From NCBI RefSeq assembly GCF_003334255.1, contig NZ_QOWU01000225.1: a stretch of 526 nt of DNA; one strand, written 5' to 3'. This stretch comes from Escherichia coli. GTDB taxonomy: Bacteria > Pseudomonadota > Gammaproteobacteria > Enterobacterales > Enterobacteriaceae. The notes below the pieces were generated by a model. That model did no database searches. It was not told the origin of the DNA and was given only the letters and a program-made list of their open reading frames with translations. A program made the translations under genes and the position numbers. Of the stretch, positions 1 through 526 are shown one piece after another; position 1 is the stretch's first letter; the number at the start of each line of letters is the position of its first letter.

Positions 1-2
1 CC

Positions 3-37
3 GTAGGCCGGATAAGGCGTTCACGCCGCATCCGGCA
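3..37 (-). repeat. REP palindromic unit, Y-type (canonical orientation on minus strand), loop variant TC (plus-strand reading)
   Basis: Reverse complement of 3-37 is tgccggatgcggcgtgaacgccttatccggcctac, matching the E. coli Y-type REP consensus. Stem GCCGGAT (7-13) pairs with ATCCGGC (30-36); inner stem GGCGT (16-20) pairs with ACGCC (23-27). GTAG at 3-6. Confidence 0.85.
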
Positions 38-49
38 GTCGTGCGCAGA

Positions 50-86
50 TGCCTGATGCGACGCTAACGCGTCTTATCAGGCCTAC
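50..86 (+). repeat. REP palindromic unit, Z-type (probably Z2), plus orientation
   Basis: tgcctgatgcgacgctaacgcgtcttatcaggcctac. Stem GCCTGAT (51-57) pairs with ATCAGGC (76-82); inner stem GACGC (60-64) pairs with GCGTC (69-73); loop taac; 3' tail CTAC at 83-86. The T at stem position 4 (GCCTGAT vs GCCGGAT) is as I recall for Z-type units. Confidence 0.8.
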
Positions 87-103
87 AAATTCCCGCGCCA
101 TCC

Positions 104-138
104 GTAGGCCGGATAAGGCGTTTACGCCGCATCCGGCA
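104..138 (-). repeat. REP palindromic unit, Y-type, loop variant TT (unit B)
   Basis: Same as 3-37 except t at 123 in the hairpin loop (ggcgtTTacgcc), so the stem is preserved. gccggataaggcgtttacgccgcatccggc is a common E. coli REP variant. Confidence 0.85.
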
Positions 139-150
139 GTCGTGCGCAGA

Positions 151-187
151 TGCCTGATGCGACGCTAACGCGTCTTATCAGGCCTAC
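151..187 (+). repeat. REP palindromic unit, Z-type, plus orientation
   Basis: Identical to 50-86. Confidence 0.8.
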
Positions 188-204
188 AAATTCTCGCGCC
201 ACCC

Positions 205-239
205 GTAGGCCGGATAAGGCGTTCACGCCGCATCCGGCA
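205..239 (-). repeat. REP palindromic unit, Y-type, loop variant TC (unit A)
   Basis: Identical to 3-37. Confidence 0.85.
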
Positions 240-251
240 GTCGTGCGCAGA

Positions 252-288
252 TGCCTGATGCGACGCTAACGCGTCTTATCAGGCCTAC
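252..288 (+). repeat. REP palindromic unit, Z-type, plus orientation
   Basis: Identical to 50-86. Confidence 0.8.
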
Positions 289-305
289 AAATTCCCGCGC
301 CATCC

Positions 306-340
306 GTAGGCCGGATAAGGCGTTTACGCCGCATCCGGCA
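306..340 (-). repeat. REP palindromic unit, Y-type, loop variant TT (unit B)
   Basis: Identical to 104-138. Confidence 0.85.
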
Positions 341-352
341 GTCGTGCGCAGA

Positions 353-389
353 TGCCTGATGCGACGCTAACGCGTCTTATCAGGCCTAC
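353..389 (+). repeat. REP palindromic unit, Z-type, plus orientation
   Basis: Identical to 50-86. Confidence 0.8.
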
Positions 390-406
390 AAATTCTCGCG
401 CCACCC

Positions 407-441
407 GTAGGCCGGATAAGGCGTTCACGCCGCATCCGGCA
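407..441 (-). repeat. REP palindromic unit, Y-type, loop variant TC (unit A)
   Basis: Identical to 3-37. Confidence 0.85.
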
Positions 442-453
442 GTCGTGCGCAGA

Positions 454-490
454 TGCCTGATGCGACGCTAACGCGTCTTATCAGGCCTAC
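454..490 (+). repeat. REP palindromic unit, Z-type, plus orientation
   Basis: Identical to 50-86. Confidence 0.8.
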
Positions 491-507
491 AAATTCCCGC
501 GCCATCC

Positions 508-526
508 GTAGGCCGGATAAGGCGTT
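508..526 (-). repeat. REP palindromic unit, Y-type, partial (truncated by window end)
   Basis: gtaggccggataaggcgtt matches the first 19 nt (plus-strand reading) of the Y-type units at 3-37 and 104-138; the window ends before the loop. Confidence 0.7.

Follow-up and report, generated by a model that had tools for sequence, protein, structure and literature searches.

The 526-nucleotide stretch of Escherichia coli DNA studied here (assembly GCF_003334255.1, contig NZ_QOWU01000225.1; called the window below, over its whole length) is built of 101-bp repeats and interrupted by stop codons in all six frames. One would thus wonder what this DNA is, where in the chromosome it belongs and whether it could encode anything at all. 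Judged from its sequence, the window is a cluster of repetitive extragenic palindromic (REP) elements of the BIME-2 type (bacterial interspersed mosaic element 2), a long-known kind of non-coding repeat of E. coli. As the best explanation of the data as a whole, we propose with high confidence that it is the interior of a BIME-2, is non-coding, and most probably represents an expanded allele of the array that separates mhpE from mhpT, known as REP31.

A tandem array fills the window, with a period of 101 bp, 5.2 copies and 97% matches as measured by Tandem Repeats Finder (TRF). Its units are of two variants, A (C22, C93 and T101) and B (T22, T93 and C101), which alternate strictly as A-B-A-B-A followed by 21 nt and so create a super-period of 202 bp. 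Apart from these A/B differences, we observed no substitution from position 1 to 526. The features of the array are the following.

1-526, no strand assigned: BIME-2 array, 5.2 copies of the 101-bp unit (TRF, unit listing, and units A and B identical to the MG1655 mhpE-mhpT units).
3-37, plus strand: Y REP no. 1, with GTAG at 3-6 and an imperfect palindrome of arms 7-20 and 23-36 that has an AA/GC internal mismatch.
3-19, minus strand: REP2-I consensus in Y REP no. 1.
38-49, no strand assigned: short (S-type) linker of 12 nt, GTCGTGCGCAGA; further copies at 139-150, 240-251, 341-352 and 442-453.
50-86, minus strand: Z2 REP no. 1, inverted (an iREP on the plus strand), with arms 51-64 and 69-82 and a CTAC end at 83-86.
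87-103, no strand assigned: long linker of 17 nt, AAATTCCCGCGCCATCC in A units and AAATTCTCGCGCCACCC in B units; further copies at 188-204, 289-305, 390-406 and 491-507.
104-138, plus strand: Y REP no. 2, B variant with loop TTTA (this and the following complete REPs recognized by palindrome and REP consensus).
151-187, minus strand: Z2 REP no. 2.
205-239, plus strand: Y REP no. 3.
252-288, minus strand: Z2 REP no. 3.
306-340, plus strand: Y REP no. 4, B variant.
353-389, minus strand: Z2 REP no. 4.
407-441, plus strand: Y REP no. 5.
454-490, minus strand: Z2 REP no. 5.
508-526, plus strand: Y REP no. 6, truncated by the window end to GTAG and the 5' arm.
6-83, plus strand: full-length match to the Rfam model RF02564 (naRNA4), 85 bits against a gathering score of 59.5.
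107-184, 208-285, 309-386 and 410-487, plus strand: further full-length RF02564 matches, 85-87 bits.
49-168, plus strand: longest open reading frame (ORF), 39 amino acids (aa), 120 nt with its stop, ATG start, no Shine-Dalgarno (SD) motif, judged spurious; likewise 150-269, 251-370 and 352-471.

The Y palindrome reads GTAG followed by GCCGGATAAGGCGT-TC-ACGCCGCATCCGGC (3-37), and the Z2 palindrome reads TGCCTGATGCGACGC-TAAC-GCGTCTTATCAGGC followed by CTAC (50-86). Altogether the window holds eleven such hairpin-forming palindromes of alternating orientation, with 14-nt arms that are 86% complementary. The folding energy of a single palindrome is -21 to -22 kcal/mol for RNA and -11 to -13 kcal/mol for DNA, with z-scores of -3.5 to -6.9 relative to shuffled sequences. 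In the Y fold the AA/GC internal loop is the non-complementary position of the stem. Folding of the entire window produced a giant hairpin in which distant Y and Z2 copies pair; we discarded it as a thermodynamic artefact of the repeats that is unlikely to form co-transcriptionally.

This anatomy was compared with the definition of REP elements. The classical REP consensus REP2-I, which serves as a REP-PCR primer and whose sequence we checked in published papers (NCGNCTTATCNGGCCTAC), gives 11 exact matches, which alternate between the strands, where 0 were expected. Each element is an imperfect hairpin palindrome of the 30-40 nt typical of REPs. The hallmark of the family is a conserved GTAG 5' of the stem foot, or CTAC 3' of it on the inverted copy (PMC3333891). 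All units carry it: GTAG lies at 3, 104, 205, 306, 407 and 508, and CTAC at 83, 184, 285, 386 and 487. REPs are also dispersed, and matches were indeed found in 5,426 of the 5,426 complete E. coli genomes searched, at a median of at least 23 places per genome. Finally, the extragenic position, which the window itself does not display, was judged from its closest relatives, all of which are placed after the mhpE stop and before the mhpT start.

Within the family, a BIME-2 consists of Y and Z2 REPs in inverse orientation joined by a short S linker, bordered by flanking linkers and present in multiple tandem copies, whose number differs between strains while the units at one locus stay alike (PMC3333891). 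The window and its relatives at the locus display all of these sequence characters. The Y and Z2 classes were assigned through near-identity to the published Y and Z2 REPs of REP325, the BIME-2 located between yjdM and yjdN, and through the Rfam unit model. The latter, RF02564, is the one Rfam family based on a unit of this kind and describes the 77-nt Y-linker-Z2 unit of REP325 (PMC4550694); in the window it also matches the minus strand over the same five intervals, at 62-63 bits (gathering score 59.5). Two further Rfam candidates, MIR5274 and Pseudomonas P17, stayed below threshold and were set aside as chance resemblances to hairpin repeats.

Several known systems help to place the array. 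REP31 of K-12 MG1655 shares with the window identical A and B units, the 101-bp period, the linkers and, as seen in the related loci, the orientation to the flanking genes. It differs in having 4.4 units, which read a25-B-A-a3 in the window orientation, whereas in the window A and B alternate strictly over at least 5.2 internal units. REP325 lies at a different chromosomal locus from the mhpE-mhpT array and has the same architecture: a Y REP, a short linker, an inverted Z2 REP and a spacer of about 17-20 nt, repeated in tandem (100-bp period, 5.8 copies). In the alignment its Y and Z2 REPs are almost identical to those of the window, and 15 of 17 positions of the long linker are the same. On the other hand, the S linker of the window is one base longer with several substitutions, its Z2 loop is TAAC and not TTGC, and its units score 85-87 bits against RF02564 where true REP325 units score 95-111. 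The strand that fits the model best also differs: in the related mhp locus it is the one antisense to mhp (79-87 bits, against 62-63 in sense; L005 1485-1863), and in REP325 the one in sense with yjdM (L006 706-1282).

A BIME-1, also named RIP or RIB, is a pair of Y and Z1 REPs with an L linker to which IHF binds. Like the window, it places inversely oriented REPs in intergenic DNA. BIME-1 elements are found singly, and their long conserved linker frequently contains an IHF site (PMC3333891), whereas the window has tandem units, a 12-nt linker and a Z2-type second REP. Moreover, the IHF consensus WATCARNNNNTTR has no match on either strand of the window, which excludes a BIME-1. A last parallel can be drawn with the REPIN/RAYT systems, where RAYT stands for REP-associated tyrosine transposase. 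They also rely on inverted REP pairs with a 5' GTAG, a stem mismatch and cleavage motifs. However, the doublets of the window have been amplified in place as a tandem array instead of being dispersed, and the 526 bp contain no transposase gene.

Where does the array come from? In the complete genomes, all the best matches fall in the spacer that separates mhpE, the gene of 4-hydroxy-2-oxovalerate aldolase, from mhpT, the gene of the 3-hydroxyphenylpropionate transporter. Base for base, A and B are the two units at the centre of the MG1655 array in this spacer, and the exact 39-aa ORF that spans an A-to-B junction, identical products of which are recorded on 59 contigs, was located in the mhpE-mhpT spacer in 10 of the 10 contigs examined. 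In the related loci, the plus strand of the window is antisense to both genes. In K-12 the array is annotated as REP31, a tandem pair mhpE/mhpT at 374931-375366 (supplement of bioRxiv 10.64898/2026.03.23.713779); 47 nt separate the mhpE stop from its beginning, and about 95 nt its end from the mhpT start. A scan of the K-12 spacer detected no sigma-70-like promoter, is not firm on whether mhpT has a promoter of its own, and gave a single terminator-like site, which falls inside mhpT. Our literature search for an mhpT promoter or transcription start returned nothing relevant. As a side observation, a shorter REP element occurs in one strain (NZ_LR778147.1; L022 801-909) in the yaiL-fghA spacer, two genes away, where it matched parts of the window as several overlapping pieces.

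The number of units at this locus varies between strains, as already described for BIME-2 elements (PMC3333891). In E. coli genomes sampled in ranking order, a sample from which the allele shares below are also taken, the span of the locus can be grouped into classes that differ by about 101 bp, namely 576, 675, 776, 877 and 978 bp including 200-bp flanks. The content ranges from one REP to 7.4 units, with long alleles of 5.4 and 7.4 units in finished genomes. The shortest class, with a single Y REP, is the most frequent and makes up about half of the sample; NC_018661.1, from an O104:H4 strain, illustrates this shortest allele, its 175-bp spacer holding one Y REP only (L017 345-383). At least one REP was kept at the locus in every genome examined.

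The order of the unit variants also differs between strains, with for example a25-B-A-a1-B-A-a3, a3-B-A-a3, a25-A-A-A-a3 and a24-B-a1-b1-A-a3, which indicates that the number of units changes by one, two or three per event. Strain DLI.5a, with 7.4 units in the order a25-B-A-a1-B-A-a3 (L001 2900-3650), suggests the duplication of a three-unit block of 303 bp, and the A-A-A order of XL10-Gold suggests single-unit steps. As for the window, its strict A-B-A-B-A order suggests that an A-B dimer was duplicated very recently. Every related array ends in degenerate terminal units, a24/a25 towards mhpT and a3 towards mhpE; since the window contains neither of them, the array from which it was taken probably comprised about 7 units or more. 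In three draft assemblies (L008, L010 and L013), runs of 129-281 N interrupt the array and make its copy number unreadable.

We then come to the question of coding capacity. The sequence-only reading had held that stop codons close all six frames within every unit, and the nine triplets on which it relied are all present, in the frames claimed, in each unit. These are TAG (4-6), TAA (13-15), TAA (65-67) and TGA (54-56) on the plus strand and, written as plus-strand triplets, TCA/TTA (21-23), CTA (64-66), TTA (74-76), TCA (77-79) and CTA (83-85) for the minus strand; as that reading also stated, triplet 21-23 switches between TCA and TTA from unit to unit. It was equally right that no frame escapes: because 101 is not a multiple of 3 (101 mod 3 = 2), the frames rotate from one unit to the next and none stays open. 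The length it gave for the longest ORF, less than about 100 nt, was on the contrary too short. ORFs running from start to stop reach 120 nt, and stop-free stretches reach 150 nt on the plus strand (for example 16-165) and 141 nt on the minus strand. The 39-aa ORFs cross unit boundaries, and the minus strand has ORFs of 34, 26 and 22 aa.

Nevertheless, these ORFs do not look like genes. We considered as evidence of a protein-coding gene or small-protein array either an ORF of 150 nt or more or, below that length, one provided with a ribosome-binding site and a conserved product, and the window presented neither. In particular, the ORF search gave no ORF of 150 nt or more with a ribosome-binding site, which the sequence-only reading had named as the observation to look for against its own conclusion. 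The 20 nt ahead of the 39-aa ORFs contain no SD-like motif, the best anti-SD duplex amounting to -3.7 kcal/mol, and a search of NCBIfam with four ORF products gave no match.

Comparison of a 50-aa stop-to-stop translation with 5.8 billion proteins retrieved 74 entries of 29-87 aa, all those with a stated organism coming from Escherichia or Shigella. A Pfam domain is absent from all but two of them; those two are annotated as IS1 transposase (PF03811), and the others are named "hypothetical protein" or "mannitol-1-phosphate 5-dehydrogenase". These database entries are gene-caller artefacts on REP DNA, and the enzyme name is apparently a misannotation of translated REP sequence that has been propagated. 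Under this name a 39-aa REP-derived ORF has been deposited in NCBI and UniRef (proteins P0007, P0008, P0022 and P0027). We also noticed, inside the mhpE-mhpT array of NZ_CP171864.1, a PGAP pseudogene at 956095-956388 (L004 1588-1881), a frameshifted and incomplete "hypothetical protein"; for NZ_CP158140.1 a "hypothetical protein" is likewise listed beneath the match.

How much do the stop codons prove by themselves? In shuffles of the whole window, the longest open stretch was 150 nt or less in 0.05% of cases. The proper null for closure is not this one but a shuffled 101-bp unit repeated in tandem, and with this null 10.9% of trials were as closed as the window while 4.4% had a fully open frame. 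The lack of long ORFs is thus near-automatic when the period of a repeat cannot be divided by 3 and alone is no evidence. Moreover, the stops sit in conserved REP motifs, TAG in GTAG/CTAC, TAA in GATAAG/CTTATC and TGA in CCTGATG, of which they are by-products. The conclusion that the window is non-coding is therefore retained on independent evidence, the argument from stop codons being insufficient alone. About half of the sampled strains carry the one-REP allele, a loss that would be intolerable for a gene, and the exclusion of a cryptic gene or small-protein array is borne out by the BIME-2 identity, the location in a spacer and the lack of SD motif and NCBIfam match. Altogether, the window encodes no protein, as is ordinary for such an element; the sequence-only reading made the right call on this point, although it understated the ORF length and left the element unrecognized.

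What could such an array do between mhpE and mhpT? Our analysis concerns its anatomy, family membership and non-coding status, the locus of its relatives and their copy-number polymorphism, and the mechanism proposed here is drawn by analogy with sister arrays. When the mhp operon is transcribed, that is, from the minus strand of the window, each REP would fold as a stable hairpin. The row of hairpins could block 3'-to-5' exonucleases and so stabilize the upstream mhp mRNA; it could also behave as a series of leaky terminators that lower read-through into mhpT. In DNA, the Y REPs would be preferred sites of gyrase binding and cleavage. The array would then be a hairpin row in the 3' untranslated or intercistronic region, acting as a shield for mhp mRNA, a damper of read-through and a gyrase site.

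This proposal is modelled on REP325, whose array strongly stabilizes the upstream yjdM mRNA, causes a partially Rho-dependent termination before yjdN that is seen only with the full array, and yields a ladder of hairpin-ended transcripts (bioRxiv 10.64898/2026.03.23.713779). Gyrase cleavage sites are over-represented in BIME-2 elements, chiefly in Y REPs, independently of transcription (PMC6379681). The REPs would in addition be substrates of the RAYT of E. coli, TnpA-REP, and its action and/or slippage or unequal recombination between units may change the number of units. TnpA-REP requires GTAG and the stem mismatch to bind REPs in single-stranded form, cleaves them at TGCC|TGAT and GGCC|TAC, and can recombine BIMEs in vitro (PMC3333891). 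Every unit of the window has kept the recognition and cleavage motifs intact, with TGCCTGAT at 50-57 and GGCCTACA at 80-87 (TGCC|TGAT and GGCC|TACA), so that all units are candidate substrates as far as their motifs tell.

Two observations touch on this subject. In the Harris 2026 supplement, a NusG-dependent Rho-binding fragment is reported on the minus strand at 375401-375492; it lies 35 nt from REP31 and is antisense to the mhpT 5' untranslated region. Besides, in one model a REP within about 15 nt of a stop codon stalls ribosomes. Such a REP-dependent down-regulation of translation is unlikely here, the first REP of the K-12 array lying 47 nt past the mhpE stop.

Some of our results weigh against the proposed locus and roles. 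The best full-length identity to the window in the complete genomes is 98.7%, with no exact copy, and the exact B-A-B stretch occurs in no complete E. coli genome, the best match over its 141 bases having 1 mismatch. In the genome contig collection neither a 137-base pattern (tail of A, B, head of A) nor a degenerate 84-base Y-S-Z2 pattern had a match, and the 141-base B-A-B pattern had none in the metagenome contig collection. The degenerate pattern does match MG1655 and four other loci; the species-representative genome of the contig collection probably carries a short or variant allele. As the exact window was not found, the assignment to the mhp locus relies on the identity of the units and not on flanking sequence. 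Regarding function, neither mhpE, mhpT nor REP31 is named in the supplement text of the gyrase Topo-seq study. The array lies in the opposite orientation to its operon from that of REP325, the best strand of the naRNA4 model being antisense to mhp, and the mhp-sense RNA is G-rich (C:G = 148:173), which is unfavourable for Rho loading. In view of this inverted orientation and of the G-rich RNA, Rho dependence may be weaker at the mhp array than at REP325. Finally, the extra units are dispensable, since about half of the sampled strains have a single REP.

One could alternatively assume that the array is a selfish or neutral repeat, in which REP doublets have been amplified by TnpA-REP and/or by slippage and unequal recombination with no selected role at this locus. 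We hold this as a possibility, to be taken tentatively. The array would be tolerated as intergenic DNA, and side effects on mRNA or topology would still be compatible with it. The steps of about 101 bp that lead from one REP to 7.4 units, the different order of the unit variants between strains, the intact TnpA-REP motifs and the mutation-free A-B-A-B-A, which fits a recent duplication of a 202-bp dimer, all agree with this hypothesis. It accounts less well for the measurable local effects of such arrays where they have been tested (REP325), for the preference of gyrase and for the retention of at least one REP in every genome examined.

By analogy with REP325, the units could also be processed to a 77-nt two-hairpin RNA which, together with HU, would bridge cruciform DNA and condense the nucleoid, as naRNA4 was proposed to do (PMC4550694). 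RF02564 does score above its gathering score on both strands of the window, but this model effectively recognizes any Y-S-Z2 unit and its best-fitting strand is antisense to the mhp operon. Furthermore, deletion or over-expression of REP325/naRNA4 leaves the nucleoid volume unchanged, and neither a stable HU-cruciform-naRNA4 ternary complex nor HU-dependent REP-REP contacts were found, in a 2026 preprint whose authors include the senior author of the original naRNA4 model (bioRxiv 10.64898/2026.03.23.713779). We thus regard such a role as very unlikely.

Still less likely, in our opinion, is that the A-B-A-B-A order and the copy number come from a mis-assembled repeat and not from a real allele. 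The arrangement was found in 0 of the 5,426 complete genomes and in neither contig collection, and several drafts break inside the array. However, both unit types are real and common, and so are their A-B and B-A junctions; finished genomes contain arrays of 5.4 and 7.4 units, and higher-order duplications occur elsewhere, such as B-A-a1-B-A-a3; in either case the identity of the element would be unchanged. As for cryptic small-protein genes, the chance that the four boundary-crossing 39-aa ATG ORFs and the 34-, 26- and 22-aa ORFs of the other strand are translated is negligible, for although some pipelines call these identical products and one array holds the frameshifted PGAP pseudogene, the plus-strand ORFs run antisense to the mhp operon, with start codons inside or beside stable hairpins, they are absent altogether from the many one-REP strains, and their relatives are short, restricted to Escherichia/Shigella, incoherently named and, save two, devoid of a Pfam domain, with neither an SD-like motif nor an NCBIfam match in the window itself.

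Coming back to the BIME-2 array as a functional hairpin row, a further speculation, which we consider improbable, would be that the number of units is a heritable and fast-mutating dial of mhpT read-through, of mhp mRNA lifetime or of the amount of gyrase held there. The A-B-A-B-A order would then be a very recent 202-bp dimer duplication in a lineage absent from RefSeq, possibly catalyzed by TnpA-REP rather than by slippage.

Descriptions of REP elements and BIME-2 arrays go back to the 1980s and 1990s. The element of the window is a textbook BIME-2, of an already known kind and at a locus already annotated as REP31 in K-12, so that as a discovery it is minor. It illustrates, on the other hand, that gene callers still annotate the short ORFs to which REP arrays give rise, here even as an unrelated enzyme, and recognizing these arrays removes spurious proteins; it also illustrates that they break short-read assemblies. 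Moreover, the mhpE-mhpT locus offers a clean 101-bp copy-number polymorphism, which could be used to ask whether the number of REPs tunes termination, mRNA stability or gyrase loading, a matter that is still debated.

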